A stretch of 64,000 bases of DNA. It comes from Myxococcota bacterium. Lineage in GTDB: Bacteria; Myxococcota_A; UBA9160; UBA6930. A program made the translations under genes and the position numbers. The DNA lies in contig OZ245002.1 in NCBI GenBank assembly GCA_965223415.1, positions 416,001 to 480,000 of the forward strand, given 5' to 3'. Positions 15,176-56,660 of this stretch are shown one piece after another. The first letter of the stretch is position 1; every line of letters begins with the position of its first letter. The notes beneath the pieces were generated by a model, which saw nothing but the letters and a program-made list of their open reading frames with translations, ran no database searches and was not told the DNA's origin.

Positions 15176-15255
15176 GTGAGACAAGGGGACGTTCCTTTCT
15201 GTCTCACCGATCCCGACTCCGCCGTGAGACAGAAAGGAACGTCCCCTTGTCTCAC
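15176..15255. repeat. REP-like palindromic doublet, copy 1
   Basis: GTGAGACAAGGGGACGTTCCTTTCTGTCTCAC (15176-15207), 16-nt spacer, exact reverse complement (15224-15255). Confidence 0.9.
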
Positions 15256-16076
15256 TAGCGCGCGAGCAGCACCGGGACGGGTGAGGTCCTCACAACCGCG
15301 CTCGCGTTCGACCCCAGGAAGTACTCGTTGATCCGGTTCCGCCCGTAGGCCCCCATCACGATCAGCCCGGCTCGCGCCCCCTTCGCCGTGTCGACGATCT
15401 TGACGTCGGGCCGGCCGAGGGTCGAGGAGGCTTCGCGCACCGGGACGGTCAGGGTGCCCAGCAACCGGCGAACCTCGTCGAAGCGGGCGGCGGCGCGGCC
15501 CTTGTCCTTCGAGTCGACGAAGACGTGGACGGTCTGCTCGAGGCGGGCGGCGAGCTCGACGGCGAGCTTGGCGGCGATGCGGGATCCGGGAGAGCCGTCG
15601 AAGGCGAGCACGATGGGGCCGCCGAACTCGGCGCCGGCGGGGACGACGGCGGTGGCCTTGTTGGTCTTGCGCAGGGTGCCGTCGGCAGTGGAGCCGATCA
15701 GGGCCGTGCGACAGCCGGCATGCTCGCCGTCGCGGCCGATCACCAGCAGGTCGACGGCCTGGCCGCGCTCGACGATGCGGTCGTCGGCAATGCCGCGCAC
15801 GGTCTCGGCACCGCACTCGCTGCCGGCGCCGCGGGCAGAATCCGAGAGGCGGCGGCAGGCCGCCTCGGCGCGCGTCTTGAGGAACGCCTCGATGCCGTCC
15901 AGGTTGGGCGGGGTCACGCCGAGGGCGTCGCCGCGCAGGCCCTGGGCCACCTTGTCCTCGATCACCGAGAGGCCGGAGAGGCGGGCGCGAAGGCGCGCGC
16001 CCAGGGCGACGCCGTAGCGCTCGGCGTGGTGGGCGGCGTCGGAGCCGTCGGTGGCGATCAGGATGGTCTCGATCAT
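15255..16076 (-). CDS. Universal stress protein (two Usp domains)
   Basis: ILIATDGS...DLLVIG...LIGSTAD; second domain IVLAFDGS...LIVMGAYG...LGSNASAVVR. Confidence 0.93.
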   Translation of the reverse strand: MIETILIATDGSDAAHHAERYGVALGARLRARLSGLSVIEDKVAQGLRGDALGVTPPNLDGIEAFLKTRAEAACRRLSDSARGAGSECGAETVRGIADDRIVERGQAVDLLVIGRDGEHAGCRTALIGSTADGTLRKTNKATAVVPAGAEFGGPIVLAFDGSPGSRIAAKLAVELAARLEQTVHVFVDSKDKGRAAARFDEVRRLLGTLTVPVREASSTLGRPDVKIVDTAKGARAGLIVMGAYGRNRINEYFLGSNASAVVRTSPVPVLLAR

Positions 16077-46588: not shown

Positions 46589-47809
46589 TCATGCGTTCCG
46601 AGCGGCATCCTCGGCGGCGCGCACGATCTCGGCGAGGGGCCGATCGGCCCGGCGCGCCGCGCGCTTGCAGTCGTCGTACTCGGCAGAGACCTGGGTGCTC
46701 CCGTCCGGCGCCGTCACGTACTTCACCCGGATGGAGCCGAAGGGCGTGTCCACGGAGCGCACCTCCCGGGGCAGGACCAGGCGATCGGCCTCCACGCTGC
46801 GCACCCCCAGGCTCCCGGTCACCGCGAGCAGGCGGCTCGCCAGCGGGACGCGGCGGGCGGGCGTGGTGAGCACCCGCAGCAGGAAGCCGGGCCGGTTCTT
46901 CTTCGTCTGCACGTACTGCAGGGAGACGTCCAGGGCGCCGGCGGCGAGGAGCTCGTCCATCACGTGATCGAAGTGCTCGGGCACGAGGTCGTCGAGGTTG
47001 GCTTCGAGGCACACCACCCGGTCCGCTCCGCCGCCGCTCTCGCGTCCGACGACGACGCGCAGCACGTTGGGCAGTGGCCCTTTGCGGTCGTTGCCCGCAC
47101 CGTGACCGATCGACTCGACGGTCATGGCGGGCAGGCCCGTGAACTCGTCCGCCAGCGTGCGCAGGATCGCGGCGCCGGTGGGCGTCACCGTCTCCCACCG
47201 AACGTGGGCCGGCACCGTCGGCACGCCCCGCAGCAGCTCGAAGGTCGCGGGGGCCGGGAGCGGCAGGCGGCCGTGCTCGGTCTCGACGGTGCCCTCGCCC
47301 AGGGCGACGGGCCCGACCGTAACCCGCTCGATCGCCATGGCGTGGACGGCGATCGCCGCGCCGGCGATGTCCACGATGGCGTCCACCGCGCCGACCTCGT
47401 GGAAGTGGACCTTCTCGACGGGAATGCCGTGCACCCGTGCCTCGGCCTCCGCCAAGGCCGCGAAGATCGCCTGGGCGCGGTCGCGCACGGCGGCCTCGAG
47501 CTTGGCCGCATCGAGGAGCCGGCGGATCGCGGCGTAGTGCCGGTGGTGGTGGTGACCGTGGCCGCCCTTCGCCCGGGGCTTCGGCACCTTCACGTCGACG
47601 TAGGGCGCCGCCAGGGCGCCGCGCTTCACCTTCTTCACGACCAGTCGGTGCGCGACGCCGAGCCCGGCGAGCCCTTCGCCGAGCTTCCGGCGCGGCAGCC
47701 CGGCATCGAGCATCGCGCCGAGGAACATGTTGCCGGCGGTCCCCGAGAAGGGGTCGAGATGGAGGACGCGCCGGCCCGCCACCGGTGCACCGGTCTTGCG
47801 CCGCGCCAC
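46589..47809 (-). CDS. larC: Nickel pincer cofactor biosynthesis protein LarC
   Basis: DPFSGTAGNMFLGAM, His-rich tract, VHFHEVGAVDAIVDI, TPTGAAIL, KKNRPG, EYDDC. Confidence 0.95.
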   Translation of the reverse strand: MARRKTGAPVAGRRVLHLDPFSGTAGNMFLGAMLDAGLPRRKLGEGLAGLGVAHRLVVKKVKRGALAAPYVDVKVPKPRAKGGHGHHHHRHYAAIRRLLDAAKLEAAVRDRAQAIFAALAEAEARVHGIPVEKVHFHEVGAVDAIVDIAGAAIAVHAMAIERVTVGPVALGEGTVETEHGRLPLPAPATFELLRGVPTVPAHVRWETVTPTGAAILRTLADEFTGLPAMTVESIGHGAGNDRKGPLPNVLRVVVGRESGGGADRVVCLEANLDDLVPEHFDHVMDELLAAGALDVSLQYVQTKKNRPGFLLRVLTTPARRVPLASRLLAVTGSLGVRSVEADRLVLPREVRSVDTPFGSIRVKYVTAPDGSTQVSAEYDDCKRAARRADRPLAEIVRAAEDAARNA

Positions 47810-48588: not shown

Positions 48589-48661
48589 GTGAGACAAGGG
48601 GACGTTCCTTTCTGTCTCACGGCTTTGCCGTGAGACAGAAAGGAACGTCCCCTTGTCTCAC
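48589..48661. repeat. REP-like palindromic doublet, copy 2
   Basis: Same 32-mer at 48589-48620, 9-nt spacer, reverse complement at 48630-48661. Confidence 0.9.
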
Positions 48662-49240
48662 TCAGTCGACGAGGCGGTCTGGCACGTAGACGAGCAGGCC
48701 GTGGATCTCGCCGTCTCGGTCGGCGATCTCGGTCTCGATGCGCAGGGCGGCCGGGGCGGCGTGGGGTGTGAGGCGCTCGGCCAGGACGGCGCCGGCGTCG
48801 CGGAGGACCAGGTCGGGCACCGAAGGCAGCACCACCGCGCCGGTGGTCTCGCCGATGGACGAGGCGACGTGGGAGACGAGGATGTTGCCCAGCTCGCGGA
48901 GCGCGGATTCGGCCATCTCCCGGTCGACGGGGCGCCCGCCGGTCAGCATGTCGACCAGCCGGTCGCGGACGTCGCCGGGGAAGATCAGGGCGAGGTAGCC
49001 ACCGGGCCCGCCGTGGAGCTCGAAGAAGACGCCCATGCGATCGGGGCCCTCGGCGTCCGCCACGATGAAGGGCTCGGCGAGACGCTGGGCAGTGAGGACC
49101 CGCACCGTCGGGACCCGCATGGAGCAGGGGCGTCCGGTCATCGCAGCGAGCGCGTTGGCGGCGTGGCCGGCGCCGATGCTGGTGAGCTCGCGGATGCGAT
49201 CCACCTGGGTCTCGTCGAGCTGCTGGGAGAGGTCGGTCAT
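48662..49240 (-). CDS. cheC: CheC-family phosphatase (DifG-like)
   Basis: RELTSIGAGHAANALAAMTG, SALRELGNIL, PSVP. Confidence 0.9.
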   Translation of the reverse strand: MTDLSQQLDETQVDRIRELTSIGAGHAANALAAMTGRPCSMRVPTVRVLTAQRLAEPFIVADAEGPDRMGVFFELHGGPGGYLALIFPGDVRDRLVDMLTGGRPVDREMAESALRELGNILVSHVASSIGETTGAVVLPSVPDLVLRDAGAVLAERLTPHAAPAALRIETEIADRDGEIHGLLVYVPDRLVD

Positions 49241-50909
49241 GCCAGCTGGTTCACGTCGAGGAGGAACACGGGACAGCCGTCGCCGAGGACCGTCAGGCCG
49301 GCGAGCAGACGCGCGCTGGCCAGGAGCCGCGGCACGGGCTTGACGTAGATCTCCTGCTGGCCGGCCAGGTGCCCGACGCGCAGGCCGACGCGTTCGCCCC
49401 GGACCTCGGCCAGCACGAGGGGGCTCGTGCCGCCGTCCTCCTCATGGGTCGGGAAGCCGATGCGGCGGGCGAGGTCGAGCACCAGCACCGGCTCGTCCTC
49501 CACCAGGCAGAACTGCTCGCTGCCGGCCACCTCGATGGCGTCGGCGGCGACCTCGACCACGCGCTCGACCTTCGCGATCGGCACCGCCACGGTCTGGCCG
49601 CCAGCGCCGACCAGCAGCACGCGCTGGACGGCGGCGGTAATCGGCACGACGAGGGCGGTCGTCGTGCCCAAGCCGGGGCGGGAGCGCAGCTCGACCCGTC
49701 CGCCGAGGGCCTCGATGGTCGCCTTCACCGCGTCCATGCCGACGCCGCGCCCGGACACCGTCGACACCTCGGCCGCGGTGCTGACCCCGGGCCGGAACAC
49801 GAGCGAGGCGATCTCGTCCGGCGGGAGATCGTCGGCCAGGTCCTCGTGGAGCACGCCGGCGTCGATCGCGCGGCGCTTCACCGAAGCGAGATCGATGCCG
49901 CGGCCGTCGTCCTCCACCGAGATCAGCACCTGGTCCTTCTCCCGCCGGGCCTCGACCACGACCCGGCCCGAGGGCGGCTTGCCCACCTCCCGGCGCGCCT
50001 CCGGCTCCTCGAGCCCGTGGTCGACGGCGTTGCGGACCAGGTGGACCAGGGGATCGCCGAGCCGATCGAGAATCGCCCGGTCCAGCTCGAGCTCGGCACC
50101 CCGGAGCTCGACGTCGACTTCCTTGCCGGTGGACCGCGCGATCTCCCGGGCCATGCGCGGCAGCGCATCCATCACGCGCAGGAGCGGAGCCGTGCGAAGC
50201 GAGAGGGCGCGGCGCTGGAGATCGCCGACCACCCGCTCCATGCGATCGAAGCCGGCGCCGAGGGTGGGGGCCATCGCCGAGTCGCCCGTACCCTCCGCCG
50301 TCGAACGCAGATGACTCGAGCTCAGGATCACCTCGCCCACAGAGGCGAGGAAGCGGTCCAGGGTCTCCGTGCGTACCCGGACCGAAGGCGGCGGCGCGCT
50401 CGAGATGACCGGGGTGGGTGCACCCGCCGCAGCTCCCGCCCCGGCCTCGGGCGCTACGACGTCGCCGCTTTTTTTGGGTCCGGCTCCGGCGGCAGCTCCG
50501 ATGCGGGAGCGATCTCCGATTCCTGCGCCGGGTCGACCGCCGCGCCGAGCCTGTCCAGGAGCTCCGGGTCGGGCGGAGAGGGCTCGCCCTGGGCGCGGAT
50601 CGCCCCGACCATCGCCTCGAGGCCCTCGAGACCCGCGAAGAGCAGCGCCGTGCCGGCCTCGCCCGCCGGCACGACACCGGCGGCGCGGAAGCGATCCATC
50701 ACGTCCTCGAGCTTGTGGGCGAGCTCGGTGATGGCGTCGTAGCCGAGGGATCCCGCCATGCCCTTGATGGAGTGGGCCATGCGGAACACCTCGTCGATCG
50801 CTTCGCCGTCGCCGGGCGCCTTCTCGAGGACGAGGAGCGCCCTGCTCATCTCGGCGAGATGATCCGTCGCCTCTTCGAGGAAGAGCGCCCGGTACTTGGC
50901 CAGGTCCAA
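49237..50909 (-). CDS. cheA: CheA histidine kinase (DifE-like), split across two frames joined by a -1 shift at 50469-50478
   Basis: Frame 0: Hpt domain (FLEEA..VFRMAHSIKGMAG..LAHKLED). -1 frame: dimerisation SVRV..LDR, HATPase HLVRNAVDHG / DDGRG / SGRGVGMD, then a CheW-like domain. Confidence 0.88.
50454..50909 (-). CDS. Stand-alone Hpt (CheA P1) product of the unshifted frame, 151 aa
   Basis: TTG start, HSIKG phosphoacceptor motif, TAG four codons after the AAA AAA run. Confidence 0.6.
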   Translation of the reverse strand: MDLAKYRALFLEEATDHLAEMSRALLVLEKAPGDGEAIDEVFRMAHSIKGMAGSLGYDAITELAHKLEDVMDRFRAAGVVPAGEAGTALLFAGLEGLEAMVGAIRAQGEPSPPDPELLDRLGAAVDPAQESEIAPASELPPEPDPKKAATS

Positions 50910-50948
50910 GGCTCAGCTCCCTTTGCCGTCCGTCTTGGGGCCCAAGGC

Positions 50949-51317
50949 CTAGCCTTCCTTCTCGAGCACCTTGGCGAGCGTCGTGAGCACGGCGTCGGGC
51001 TTGAAGGGCTTCACGATGAAGTCCTTGGCGCCGGCCTGGATCGCCTCCATGACCAAAGTCTCCTGCCCCAGCGCACTGCACATCACCACCGTGGCGCCGG
51101 GATCCTCTGCCTTGATGGCCTTCACCGCGTCGATGCCCGAGCGCTTGGGCATGACGATGTCCATCATGACCAGGTCGGGACGCAGCTCCAGGAACTTCTC
51201 CACGACTTCGACGCCGTCGGACGCTTCGCCCACCACCTCATAGCCTTCGGGCTCGATGATGTCGCGAATCATCTGCCGCATGAAGGACGCGTCGTCGGCA
51301 ACCAGAACCCTCTTCAT
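50949..51317 (-). CDS. cheY: CheY-like response regulator (DifD-like)
   Basis: VLVADDASFMR, PDLVMMDIVMP, MCSALGQ, GAKDFIVKPF. Confidence 0.95.
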   Translation of the reverse strand: MKRVLVADDASFMRQMIRDIIEPEGYEVVGEASDGVEVVEKFLELRPDLVMMDIVMPKRSGIDAVKAIKAEDPGATVVMCSALGQETLVMEAIQAGAKDFIVKPFKPDAVLTTLAKVLEKEG

Positions 51318-51814
51318 GTCGTTCCCCCGTGGGTTGGCTCGCTGGCGCCATTCGCCACCGAGTTCGAGATCACTTCCGCCGCCCGCTCGAGCAGGCGTTT
51401 CGGATCCAGCACGCTGACCATCCGCCCGTCGAGAGGGCGGCGCTCCGCCACCGGGTCCGCCTCCAGGGCGTGAGCCGGCGGCCCGTCGATCAGCCCCAGG
51501 ATGCGGTCCACCGGCACGCCGTAGCGGTCCGGGTCGTCCGGATCCTTGGCCAGGATCAGGAGCGGCCGTTCGATCGGGTAGCGCGAGCGATGCGCACCGA
51601 AGAGCGCGTCGCCGAAGACGATGGGCACGGCGTCGCCGTGGTGGTTCACGACGCCGCCCACCCGATGGTGCACCATCGGCACCGAGGCGAGCTGGTCGAG
51701 CTCGGCCACCTCGGCGACGTCGGCGATGGGCAGGGCGTAGAGGGCATCGCACAGCTCGAAGGCGAGCAGGCGCTCGCTGAGCTCCATGGGAGGGATCTGG
51801 GGGGGCGCGCTCAC
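51314..51814 (-). CDS. cheW: CheW-like adaptor (DifC-like)
   Basis: [42 protein letters not shown]. Confidence 0.88.
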
Positions 51815-53112
51815 GAGGCGTCCGGGTCCGAGCCAGTGCGGAAGCGCCCGACCATTCCGGTGAGATCGCCGGACAGCTCCGCGAGGGAAGCCGAGGCTTC
51901 GGTCATCTCGCCGACGGCCTCCTGCTGGCGATGGGCCAGCTCGGCCACCTCCTCCACCGCGGACGCGTTCGCCAGGGAGACCTTCGCCACCTCGTCCATC
52001 GACTCGACCATGGTCTCGGCGTCGCGGGCCTGGTCGTCGGCCTGCTGGAAGATCTCCTCGGCGCGGCCGGCGGCCTCCCCCACGGCGGAGCGGATCTGCT
52101 CCAGGGAGGCGGCGATCGTGTTCACGTCCTCGCGGCCCTCGGAGATCATCTGGCCGGATTCGCGCATCTCGTCGGCCACGCTCTGGGTATCGGTCTCGAT
52201 CTCGCCGACGAGCTTCGAGATCTCCTCCGCGCTGCGGGCGGCGCTCTCGGCGAGCTTGCGGATCTCGTCGGCGACCACCGCGAAGCCGCGCCCGGCCTCA
52301 CCGGCCCGCGCCGCCTCGATCGAGGCGTTCAGGGAGAGGAGGTTGGTGCGCGACGCCACGCTCGTGATGATCTCGGTGATCTGGTGCACGTGCCGGGTCT
52401 TGGCTTCGAGCTGGAAGACGTTGCCCCCCGAGTGCTCCACGCGCTCGAACACGCTGCGCATCTTCTCGATCGCGAGCCGGGACACGTCGACGCCGGCGTT
52501 GGCCTTCTGGTTCGCCTCGGCAGCGAAGCCGAAGGCCTCGCGCGCGCGTGAGGCGTTCACCTCGATGGCCGACGCGATGTGATGGATCAGGCGCGTCACG
52601 TCGCCGAGCAGCTTCTGCTGCTGGCTGGCGCCCTTGGAGATCTCGGACAGCGTGGAGGTCATGTCTTCGGCCGAGGTGTGAACGCCGTTCACGGCGCCGC
52701 GCAGGGTGTCGACGCCGCGATGCACCTGCTCGGCGTTGTGCTGGATGCCAGCCATCACCTCGCCGAGAGCGCGCACGGATTGCGCCATGTTGCGGGCGAG
52801 CTCGCTGCTCTCGTCCGGGAAACGGCCGGCGGGAACCTGGGGGAACTCGCGCAGATCCCCGGCGACGATGCGCTCGGACAGCTCCAGCACCGGACGGTAG
52901 CCGCCGGCGATGCGCGCCGAGAGGCGCCACGCCAGCACCCCGCCCGCTCCCAACGCGAGGAACGGACGCGCCCACGGCGCCATGGGAATGCCGCCCTGCT
53001 GGACCAGCCAGGGGATGAGCAGCACGACCCCCGCGACCAGCATCGAGCCGATCGCGACCTTGTGCGAGAGGGAGAGCCTCACACCCCCGGGTATCGGCCT
53101 CCCCGCGCGCAT
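51811..53112 (-). CDS. Methyl-accepting chemotaxis protein without a periplasmic sensor (DifA-like)
   Basis: Two closely spaced TMs, [38 protein letters not shown]. Confidence 0.93.
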
Positions 53113-54167: not shown

Positions 54168-54240
54168 GCGAGACAAAGGGACGTTCCTTTCTGTCTCACG
54201 GCGGAGCCGTGAGACAGAAAGGAACGTCCCCTTGTCTCAC
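54168..54240. repeat. REP-like palindromic doublet, copy 3
   Basis: 32-mer with two substitutions at 54168-54199, 9-nt spacer, exact reverse-complement unit at 54209-54240; contains the lon stop codon. Confidence 0.9.
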
Positions 54241-56660
54241 TGTCGGCGCGGCTTGGCGGTGGCGACGCTGCTTCGGCTGGTGCGGGTGCTGCCCCGGGGC
54301 ACGCTGCGCTTGGGGCGGGAGAGCGTTCCGTCGAGGGCCGCCTCGAGCACGTCGTCCATGTGGCTGGCGCCGATGAAGCGGATCCGCTTCGCCAGCTCGC
54401 CGGGAACCTCCCTCACGTCCGCCAGGTTGCGCTCCGGGAGGATCACGGTGGTGATGCCCGCTCGAAGCGCCGCCAGCGCCTTCTCCCGGATGCCGCCGAC
54501 GGGCAGGACCTTGCCGAGGAGGGTCACCTCCCCGGTCATGGCCACGTCCGGACGCACCGGCACGCCGCTCGCGAGGGACACGATCGCGGTCGCCATGGTC
54601 ACGCCCGCCGAGGGTCCGTCCTTGGGGATCGCGCCGGCGGGGACGTGGACGTGCACCTCCCTGCGCTCCAGACAGGAGGCCTCGAGGCCCAGCTCGGTCA
54701 CCTTCGAGCGCGCCCAGGTGAGGGCCGCGTGTCCCGACTCCTTCATCACCTCTCCGAGCTGGCCGGTCAGCACGAGCCCGCGGCCGCGAGTCACCGCGGC
54801 TTCGACCCGCAGCACGTCGCCGCCGGCCTCGGTCCAGGCGAGGCCGTTCGTCACGCCGATCTCGCCTTCGTTGTGCGGCTCGTCCGGAGCGTGGCGCGGC
54901 GGCCCGAGGAGCTTCGGCAGCGAACGCTTGTCGATGCGCATCGGCCGCTCGTCGCCTTCCGCCGCCCGACGCGCCGCCTTGCGGCACACCCCGGCGATCT
55001 GGCGCTCGAGAGCGCGCACACCGGCCTCGTAGGTGTAGTCGGTGACGATCCGCGAGAGGGCCGAGTCGGACCAGTGGATGCGATCCGCGGGCAGGCCCGC
55101 GTCTTCCACCTGCCGCGGCACCAGATAGGAGCGCGCGATCTCGAGCTTCTCTTCGGGCGTGTAGCCGGACACCCGGATCACCTCCATGCGATCGCGCAGG
55201 GGACCGGGAATCGACTCGAGCAGGTTCGCCGTCGCCACGAAGAAGACGCCGGAGAGATCGAAGGGCACGTTCAGGTAGTGGTCGCTGAACTTGCTGTTCT
55301 GCTCCGGATCGAGCACCTCGAGCAGGGAGGAAGAGGGATCCCCGCGGTAGTCGTTACCGAGCTTGTCGATCTCGTCGAGCATGAAGACCGGGTTGTTGGT
55401 CCCGGCCTGCTTCAGCCCCTGGATGATGCGCCCGGGCAGCGCGCCCACGTAGGTGCGGCGGTGGCCACGGATCTCCGCCTCGTCGCGCACGCCGCCCAGG
55501 GAGATGCGCACGAACTCGCGCCCCATGGCTCGCGCGATCGATCGGCCGAGGGAGGTCTTGCCGACACCCGGCGGCCCCACGAAGCAGAGGATCGAGCCCC
55601 GCGAATCGGCCCGCAGCTTACGCACACCGAGGAACTCGAGGATCCGGTCCTTGATTCCCTTCAGGTGCGCGTGGTCGCAATCCAGGATCTCGCGGGCGTG
55701 GGAGAGATCGAGGCGATCCGGCGAGGTGCGGGACCAGGGCAGGTCCGTCATCCACTCCAGGTAGCTGCGCACGACCTGGGCCTCGGGCCCGTCCGGATGC
55801 ATGCGTTCGAAGCGGCGAAGCTGCTTCATCGCCTCGTCGAGAGGCTCCGGCGGGAGGGCCGCTTCCTCGATCTTGAGCCGGTACTCGGCCGCCTCCTCCA
55901 TGCGCGGGTCCACCTCGCCGAGCTCGGCCTGGATCGCCCGCAGCTGCTCGCGCAGGTAGTGCTCGCGCTGGCCGCGGCTGATCTCCTCCTTGGCCTGGCT
56001 CTGGATCTCGGCCTGCATGGTCGTGACGTCGAGCTCCCGGCGGAGCAGGCGGTCGACCTTGCGCAGCCGCGAGATCGGATCGACGACCTCCAGCACCTCC
56101 TGGGCCTCGCCCAAGCGGAGCTTGAGGTTCGAGGCGACGAGGTCCGCCAGGCGGCCGGGCTCGTAGACGTTCGAGGTGATCGAGAGCACCTCCGGCGGGA
56201 GGTTCTTCAGGGGCAGCAGCTCCTCGACCCGGGTGCGCACGGTGCGCATCAGCGCCTCGGCCTCCACGCACCAGTCGCCCTCGCCTTCTTCCGGCAGCGC
56301 GGACACGGCGGCCCAGGTCGCGGGCTCGCTGTCCACGAAGGAATCGATGCGCGCCTTGGTGAGCCCCTGGACCAGCGCCTTCACGCGGCCGTCGGGCAGG
56401 CGCAGGATGCGCATGACCATCGCGACGGTGCCCACGCGATAGAGATCGTCCGCGTCCGGGTCCTCCACCTCCGCGTTGCGCTGGGCGGCGAGGAGTACGA
56501 GACGGTCGCCCGCGAGCGCGTCCTCCACCGCGGCGATGCTGCGCTCGCGCGAGACGAAGAGCGGCAGCACCATGTACGGGAAAACCACGAACTCGCGGAG
56601 CGGCAGCACCGGGAGCTCGTCGGGAATCCCGAAGTCGAAGGAGGAGGTGTCGTTCGCCAT
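54237..56660 (-). CDS. lon: ATP-dependent protease La
   Basis: [41 protein letters not shown]. Confidence 0.98.

Follow-up and report, generated by a model that had tools for sequence, protein, structure and literature searches.

A cheA gene broken at a conserved poly-A run in a class of Myxococcota, and its probable joining by programmed −1 slippage

Introduction

Slippage at a run of A yields two products from one gene in dnaX (tau/gamma), whose two-ORF 'reversed' type carries A7-A10 runs and needs a −1 shift for the long product, the N-terminus being shared (PMC3711429, PMC5009743). Orthologues of dnaX alternate between ribosomal shifting assisted by a Shine-Dalgarno (SD) element and a hairpin, and slippage of the polymerase; both single-ORF and two-ORF layouts occur (PMC3711429, PMC5009743). 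In chlD and the Mg-Co chelatases, a −1 shift at A7-A11 sites gives small and large subunits from one gene, and the chlD poly-A sites reach 10-63% efficiency in E. coli reporters (PMC3711429, PMC9227772). In E. coli copA, a small N-terminal domain is released as its own protein (PMC5009743). The SD spacing given for −1 shifting is 9-14 nt; A_AAA_AAA is much less shift-prone than A_AAA_AAG in E. coli, and AAG is argued to be a poor shift codon where both lysine tRNAs exist (PMC5009743). Transcriptional slippage usually occurs at runs of 8 or more, and is the mechanism assigned to A10 dnaX genes and to cases with slips in both directions (PMC3711429).

The gene considered here is cheA, which encodes a chemosensory kinase. 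Naturally split CheA pairs exist, and free P1, the phospho-acceptor domain, can be trans-phosphorylated by CheA; a literature search on this trans-phosphorylation gave no result. In the Dif pathway of Myxococcus xanthus, CheY serves as a phosphate sink, and CheC is a phosphatase (PMC4671073). For E. coli cheA, FSscan predicts a +1 hotspot with reporter activity above a random control (PMC2790909). Outside mobile elements, bacterial genes seldom show conserved recoding, and in the open-access literature none was found described as splitting a chemosensory kinase. A cheA gene of a Myxococcota bacterium was predicted, from its letters, to use a programmed −1 ribosomal frameshift for a free Hpt protein and a full-length kinase. 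This prediction is followed up here.

Results

cheA occupies two reading frames in a Dif-like operon

The window is a stretch of 64,000 nt (contig OZ245002.1, positions 416,001 to 480,000; assembly GCA_965223415.1). By ORFs and Pfam, its minus strand carries a Dif-like cluster in the order MCP (51811..53112, in a DifA-like position), cheW (51314..51814, DifC-like), cheY (50949..51317, a DifD-like receiver), cheA and cheC (48662..49240, a DifG-like phosphatase whose start overlaps the cheA stop). The 0 frame of cheA (50909-50454, minus strand) starts with TTG and ends with TAG. Its 151 aa, the predicted unshifted product, consist of the Hpt (P1) domain (Pfam Hpt, residues 6-106, E 1.3e-19) and a linker. 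The kinase part runs on in the −1 frame (50469 down to 49237, 410 codons) with the remaining linker and the H-kinase_dim, HATPase_c and CheW domains (P3-P4-P5), and no ATG, GTG or TTG stands in this frame ahead of P3, in line with the earlier claim of no usable start there. The shifted product adds these 410 codons to the 147 that lead up to and include the run, for a total of 557 aa, so that both predicted lengths (151 and about 557 aa) agree with the ORFs and the codon count. The Hpt, dimerisation, HATPase_c and CheW domains of a CheA are all present with their catalytic boxes (Pfam and strict patterns). An Rfam scan of 49000-52000 gives no meaningful match.

Directly past cheC (48589-48661) lies an inverted repeat whose arms pair perfectly over 35 bp around a loop of 3 nt; others lie at 54170-54241 and 15177-15256. 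The cheC-adjacent repeat has 28 genome matches of at least 50 nt and is a REP/MITE-like intergenic repeat, maybe also a terminator. Further along, larC (46589-47809, minus strand), adjoining larB, is continuous, with LarC1 and LarC2 fused in a single frame; LarC is presumably DUF111. DUF111 is a confirmed frameshift family (PMC3711429).

The frames meet at a rare A7 run

The two frames overlap at a slippery heptamer A_AAA_AAA (50469..50475, minus strand), an A7 run in register with the 0 frame. Read as T7 on the forward strand, it is the sole A/T run of at least 5 in the window, and the whole 5.83-Mb genome holds only 15 A7/T7 or longer runs. In a crude set of 2837 ORFs from this genome, 3.4% of Lys codons are AAA, and 4 of 806 Lys-Lys pairs are AAA-AAA; the earlier remark that this was the longest A/T run noticed, where Lys is nearly always AAG, is borne out. 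The genome carries both tRNA-Lys(UUU) and tRNA-Lys(CUU), which fits AAA, not AAG, at the slip site. Six of the 15 long runs belong to an identical A7-containing segment beginning CTAG (G000:C1 near 489144, 2137564, 3287668, 4049085, 4607629 and 4768306), probably the end of an insertion sequence.

The run length was compared with public data through the Logan contigs of 4 of 8 listed runs (X1, X2, X4, X5). The region 49726-51024 is covered by contigs of X1 (depth 9.4) and of X2 (depth 78.6), in which neither a difference nor a gap occurs. X5, from a different study, gives a 151-nt contig of depth 2 that spans 50382-50532 and is identical, A7 included, and the two depth-2 contigs of X4 end at the run, neither crossing it. 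Three public runs (X1, X2, X5) thus carry A7 and not A8, and no tract-length variant is found among the indels listed from the run contigs. X1 and X2 could themselves stem from the source study, and the relatives are the stronger evidence against an assembly error.

The break is conserved across the class

The class comprises 225 genomes, of which 188 give a strong match to the kinase part; the locus was fetched from 157, and 4 loci were dropped at contig ends, leaving 153 scorable orthologues. In 131 of them cheA is split, in every case at an A7-A11 run inside the P1 linker, with the kinase in the −1 frame in 128 and in the +1 frame in 3. The other 22 are continuous, 18 without the run and 4 with it. 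Splits are found in 53 of 69 genera, in 10 of 11 families and in both orders, between which the kinases share about 45% identity. The conserved break that had been proposed as a check is thereby found, and, as far as sequence comparison goes, the split is confirmed as real and conserved. Strict patterns detect the G2 box in all 131 split loci, the N box in 122, and the G1 box and the His motif in 116 each. Among 55 wide orthologue loci, cheY lies upstream in 55, cheW upstream in 52 and cheC downstream in 51.

The 128 −1 loci carry A7 (64), A8 (15), A9 (22), A10 (26) or A11 (1), and A6 in no case. All contain an in-register A_AAA_AAA, a heptamer of the X_XXY_YYZ form; in 124 the last A of the run closes a codon, and in 4 the run extends one base further. 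The 64 A7 loci, drawn from 24 genera, all hold A_AAA_AAA, though just one register in three allows it. Of the two overlapping heptamers first proposed, this one is universal and C_CCA_AAA is not conserved (17 of 64 A7 loci). Directly ahead of the Lys pair, 54 of 64 A7 loci have the codon CCA, which is 4% of Pro codons in this genome; its A is part of the run and its CC may be an extra signal. On a FastTree tree of the kinase part, run presence changes at least 12 times, a count that alone cannot separate gain from loss.

As a control, distant CheAs were taken from a scan of named genomes: 75 of 76 scorable genes are continuous and 1 is split without an A-run (4 unscored). Both CheA paralogues tested in the source genome are continuous. 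A search of the phylum gives no match at E≤1e-72 outside the class among 401 sampled genomes, with 4 candidates scored per genome. The cheA of an Acidobacteriota MAG (L215:2450-3400) is broken directly past P1, without an A-run, and may be a pseudogene or carry an error.

The −1 frame is open and both parts are maintained

Between the run and the dimerisation domain, the −1 frame of the 128 loci has 0 stops in 3959 codons, against 50 stops in the +1 frame, and it is open from the run itself over 17-347 nt. At L013 and L018, a −1-frame stop lies 6 nt ahead of the run and a 0-frame stop 3 nt past it; with stops flanking it in both frames, the switch is confined to the run. In 10 pairs, pN/pS is 0.15-0.33 for the kinase and 0.17-0.41 for Hpt, and no internal kinase stop occurs in the 131 split loci; judged by these values, both halves are under purifying selection. 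The locus shows the overlapping-ORF arrangement of a bacterial −1 frameshift, an open −1 frame with both parts selected. GC3 gave no sign of a frame switch within the linker. The post-run linker lacks ATG, GTG and TTG in 71 of 128 loci, the source locus included; 57 have some start, and ATG occurs in only 10.

The short product always holds the whole P1, its length is 125-192 aa, and its tail is freely variable. At the source locus, the 0-frame TAG (50454..50456, minus strand) lies 12 nt past the run. TAG is the 0-frame stop in 92 of 128 split loci, at varied distances from the run, and represents 39% of stops in the genome's crude gene set. Wherever TAG is used, the −1 frame has to carry a rare xTA codon; shared ancestry may account for the excess.

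An SD-like element precedes the shorter runs

The predicted GGAG (50484..50487, minus strand) is present 8 nt upstream of the run. Its duplex with the genome's own anti-SD reaches −5.8 kcal/mol, against −4.1 for synonymous shuffles. The 8-nt gap is just under the 9-14 nt range; among the relatives the modal core is separated from the heptamer by 8-9 nt, and most gaps are likewise short. In the A7-8 loci the SD-like signal peaks about 7 nt upstream at a mean of −6.8 kcal/mol, against −3.3 further upstream and −5.8 in synonymous shuffles, so part of the signal follows amino-acid choice. It is stronger than upstream in 26 of 29 genera and stronger than the shuffles in 22 of 29. In the A9-11 loci, the mean is −3.1 kcal/mol, and the corresponding counts are 12 and 4 of 24 genera. 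At least 5 contiguous SD pairs are formed in 47 of 79 A7-8 loci versus 4 of 49 A9-11 loci. In independent pairs, a long run goes with a weak SD by 6.5 to 0.5 of 10; p has a median of 0.03 and ranges over 0.008-0.73, with an SD threshold chosen after the group means were known.

Folding past the run is enriched at the family level

A putative stem-loop (50425..50461, minus strand) begins 7-8 nt past the run, and its 5' arm contains the 0-frame TAG. The outer stem (50461-50453 with 50433-50425) folds as predicted; the minimum-energy inner stem (50451-50448 with 50438-50435) is slightly different from the one proposed. Against shuffles, the hairpin scores z of −0.6, −1.05, +0.35 and −2.06 in four folding windows and −2.65 in the +5..+50 window, and taken alone it is modestly better than shuffles.

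Across the 128 loci, folding just 3' of the run gives z<−2 in 37, against 6 and 5 in control windows. The mean z there is −1.84 for A7-8 and −0.55 for A9-11, and independent pairs show no link between hairpin strength and run length (3.2 vs 2.7 of 10). Genus g71, represented by 24 sequences, has a stem of 9 bp whose core begins 13 nt past the run; pairing in it reaches 96%, and it shows 9 double-sided changes. This stem beats 500 of 500 shuffles and all slid controls, relatedness inflating the shuffle test. In the source genus (5 sequences), 62 of 65 cells are paired, which is not significant against shuffles. The hairpin sequence is genus-specific and not conserved between genera. The covarying hairpin proposed as a check is thus found in g71, with no significant excess of pairing in the source genus, and a 3' structure is present at the family level, through enrichment and the g71 covariation, and weak in the source genus alone.

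Seven loci have other frame layouts

Seven loci depart from the −1 layout, three with the kinase in the +1 frame (+1/−2) and four in frame with a nearby −1 stop. L112 and L115 (two genomes of one genus) and L096 contain AA_AAA_AAG with the kinase in +1; as candidates they would need a −2 slip, a +1 shift or the loss of one A. SD-like elements are strong at L112 (−11.2) and L115 (−10.0). In L102, L107 and L113 (one genus) and L079, runs of A8-A10 are in frame and a −1-frame stop follows 2-6 codons on, a polarity like that of E. coli dnaX. L079, L102 and L107 resemble the usual junction plus one A, and single cases could be assembly choices; L113 cannot be. Genus g47 (L102, L107, L113, L117, L124) combines in-frame A10 loci, one −1 split A9 locus and one locus without the run.

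Discussion

Some programmed slip very probably joins the two cheA frames, and at the source locus programmed −1 ribosomal frameshifting is the probable form of it, as judged from the layout and its conservation. The original interpretation is supported, and those of its refutation tests that were run did not refute it. In the proposed sequence of events, ribosomes would translate P1 and the linker, the anti-SD would pair with the internal GGAG, and the 3' hairpin would stall the ribosome with two tRNA-Lys(UUU) on A_AAA_AAA. A fraction of ribosomes would slip back one base with perfect re-pairing and complete the 557-aa P1-P3-P4-P5 CheA. The remaining ribosomes would stop four codons on and release the 151-aa free Hpt, which would probably be phosphorylated in trans and serve the CheY/CheC branch by buffering or shuttling phosphate. 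The ribosomal mechanism, its efficiency, the fixed ratio of products and the role of free Hpt are what we infer from this arrangement.

For the function of the slip, an extra phospho-acceptor pool would fit a phosphate-draining Dif pathway. With the same mechanism, the slip could instead just throttle full CheA relative to CheW, CheY and CheC, the short form being a by-product; given recoding, this is possible but doubtful, and dosage control is a live alternative. Its case includes the freely varying tail of the short product and the 18 run-less lineages, which show no close stand-alone Hpt. The break, against this, always falls directly past a complete P1. The four in-frame loci, three of one genus with differing junctions, also retain rare AAA runs with a −1 stop close by, and a slip there can only yield the short form or trim the long one. 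A separate Hpt gene had been predicted for the continuous lineages. With the query used, no close second copy was found in the 18 genomes; apart from paralogous CheAs, the search gave a single match, 35% identical and lying in a 233-aa frame. Free Hpt is thus dispensable in some lineages.

Transcriptional slippage, in which RNA polymerase adds one A on the T-run, would give a mixed mRNA pool and the same two products. As an account of the source gene it is unlikely. In its favour, pure A runs alone make up the motif, with no other X_XXY_YYZ at any locus. This uniformity counts against the ribosomal reading, as do the lower shift-proneness of A_AAA_AAA in E. coli, the short SD gap and a hairpin sequence that is unshared between genera. 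The 49 of 128 loci at A9-11 with weak SD, together with the seven loci of other layouts (+1/−2 and in frame), suggest polymerase slippage. The source locus, on the other side, combines A7 with an SD and a hairpin. Its run is below the usual slippage length (a homopolymer of about 8-9 or more, as opposed to A9 or longer in the 49 relatives), which counts for the ribosome. The codon register is kept in all 64 A7 loci, and an SD association makes sense for the ribosome only. With 49 of 128 (about 38%) of the −1 relatives at A9-11 and mostly without SD, the mechanism may differ by lineage. Our reading is ribosomal for A7-8 sites, the source locus among them, and probably transcriptional, or one of ribosome sliding, for A9-11 sites; transcriptional slippage is the likely main route in A9-A11 lineages and a possible one at the source A7.

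A split kinase with separate initiation, P1 and P3-P4-P5 acting in trans and the A-run only opening the mRNA for restart, is improbable. A start codon is available in the post-run linker of 57 of 128 loci, but the remaining 71, with the source locus among them, have no standard start ahead of P3, and an ATG is present in just 10. The −1 frame is moreover open right from the run, and 128 of the 131 split loci share the −1 offset. Phase variation at the DNA level, the tract switching ON and OFF by replication slippage, is very improbable. A homopolymer in a surface-behaviour pathway, the four loci with the run in frame and the X4 contigs that end at the run (at depth 2, uninformative) would suit it, but of the 135 loci that bear a run, 131 have the OFF frame, and 128 of those agree in which frame it is. 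A7 is also short, the indels listed include no length variant, and the SD and hairpin enrichment would be left unexplained. Assembly error or pseudogenization, suggested by a single-contig genome with a break at a homopolymer, has a negligible probability and is refuted by the break being kept across 53 genera, alongside identical A7 in the run contigs, an open −1 frame and purifying selection.

Returning to programmed slippage, a wider scenario can be drawn, which we hold tentatively, with the balance tipping slightly against it. Recoding would have set the P1:kinase stoichiometry since the class ancestor, with free Hpt working in the pathway. Lineages would have gone back and forth between A7-8 sites, where an SD assists ribosomal shifting, and A9-11 sites, where slippage needs no stimulator; even the default product would have flipped, and in one genus a −2 slip or the deletion of an A would apparently be required. 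If true, a phospho-acceptor:kinase ratio set during decoding would be a possible further way to tune signalling. Automatic annotation is predicted to show this cheA as broken or as two genes class-wide. The approximately 135 natural cassettes (A7-A11, with and without SD, in three frame layouts) form an allelic series for ribosomal versus transcriptional poly-A recoding.

The open-access literature yields no report of the cheA A-run site; subscription papers lie mostly beyond this scope, and a listing in a GeneTack-type table is possible. Chemotaxis and cheA are absent from the main text and two of the three supplements of PMC3711429. The term 'chemotaxis' was not found in the portion of PMC5009743 covered, and the portions covered of PMC8235581, PMC2700814, PMC9303304 and PMC11756786 hold nothing relevant to the cheA site. 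The earlier statement that no recoding in cheA has been described therefore stands for the A-run site and fails for E. coli cheA, whose +1 hotspot is published (PMC2790909). That FSscan site is +1, lies in a 16-nt window that is not an A-run, and belongs to an intact ORF, with no argument from a split gene or from cheA conservation in the portion of the paper covered; on these grounds it is unrelated to the A-run site.

The closest pathway is M. xanthus Dif, with the same component set of MCP, CheW, CheY, CheA and CheC (PMC4671073), a likeness by gene set; unlike the cheA here, recoding is without mention in the covered part of that source. The predicted release of a small N-terminal domain as its own protein resembles E. 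coli copA (PMC5009743), but in copA the ORF is intact and it is the short product that arises by the shift, and the heptamer analogue C_CCA_AAA is found in just 17 of the 64 A7 cheA loci. In its probable −1 shift at A7-A11 sites, its two predicted products from one gene and the existence of fused homologues, cheA resembles chlD and the Mg-Co chelatases (PMC3711429, PMC9227772). In the chelatases, as far as the sources cover them, signal loss goes with a separate small-subunit gene, unlike the 18 continuous cheA genomes with no close Hpt copy. The predicted likeness to dnaX holds for the slippery heptamer and, at the family level, the 3' structure; the SD gap is on the short side, and one correction is needed in that cheA is of the 'reversed' type, where the shift yields the long product. 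It differs from dnaX in encoding a signalling kinase and not a clamp loader, in a predicted short product that is a single phospho-acceptor domain, and in its A_AAA_AAA site, the E. coli dnaX site being A_AAA_AAG. In conclusion, cheA parallels two-ORF dnaX in its probable −1 shift at poly-A runs, the N-terminus its predicted products share and a long product that would need the shift, and, like the dnaX orthologues, the cheA family alternates between sites with SD and hairpin signals and sites suggestive of polymerase slippage, in both single-ORF and two-ORF layouts (PMC3711429, PMC5009743).
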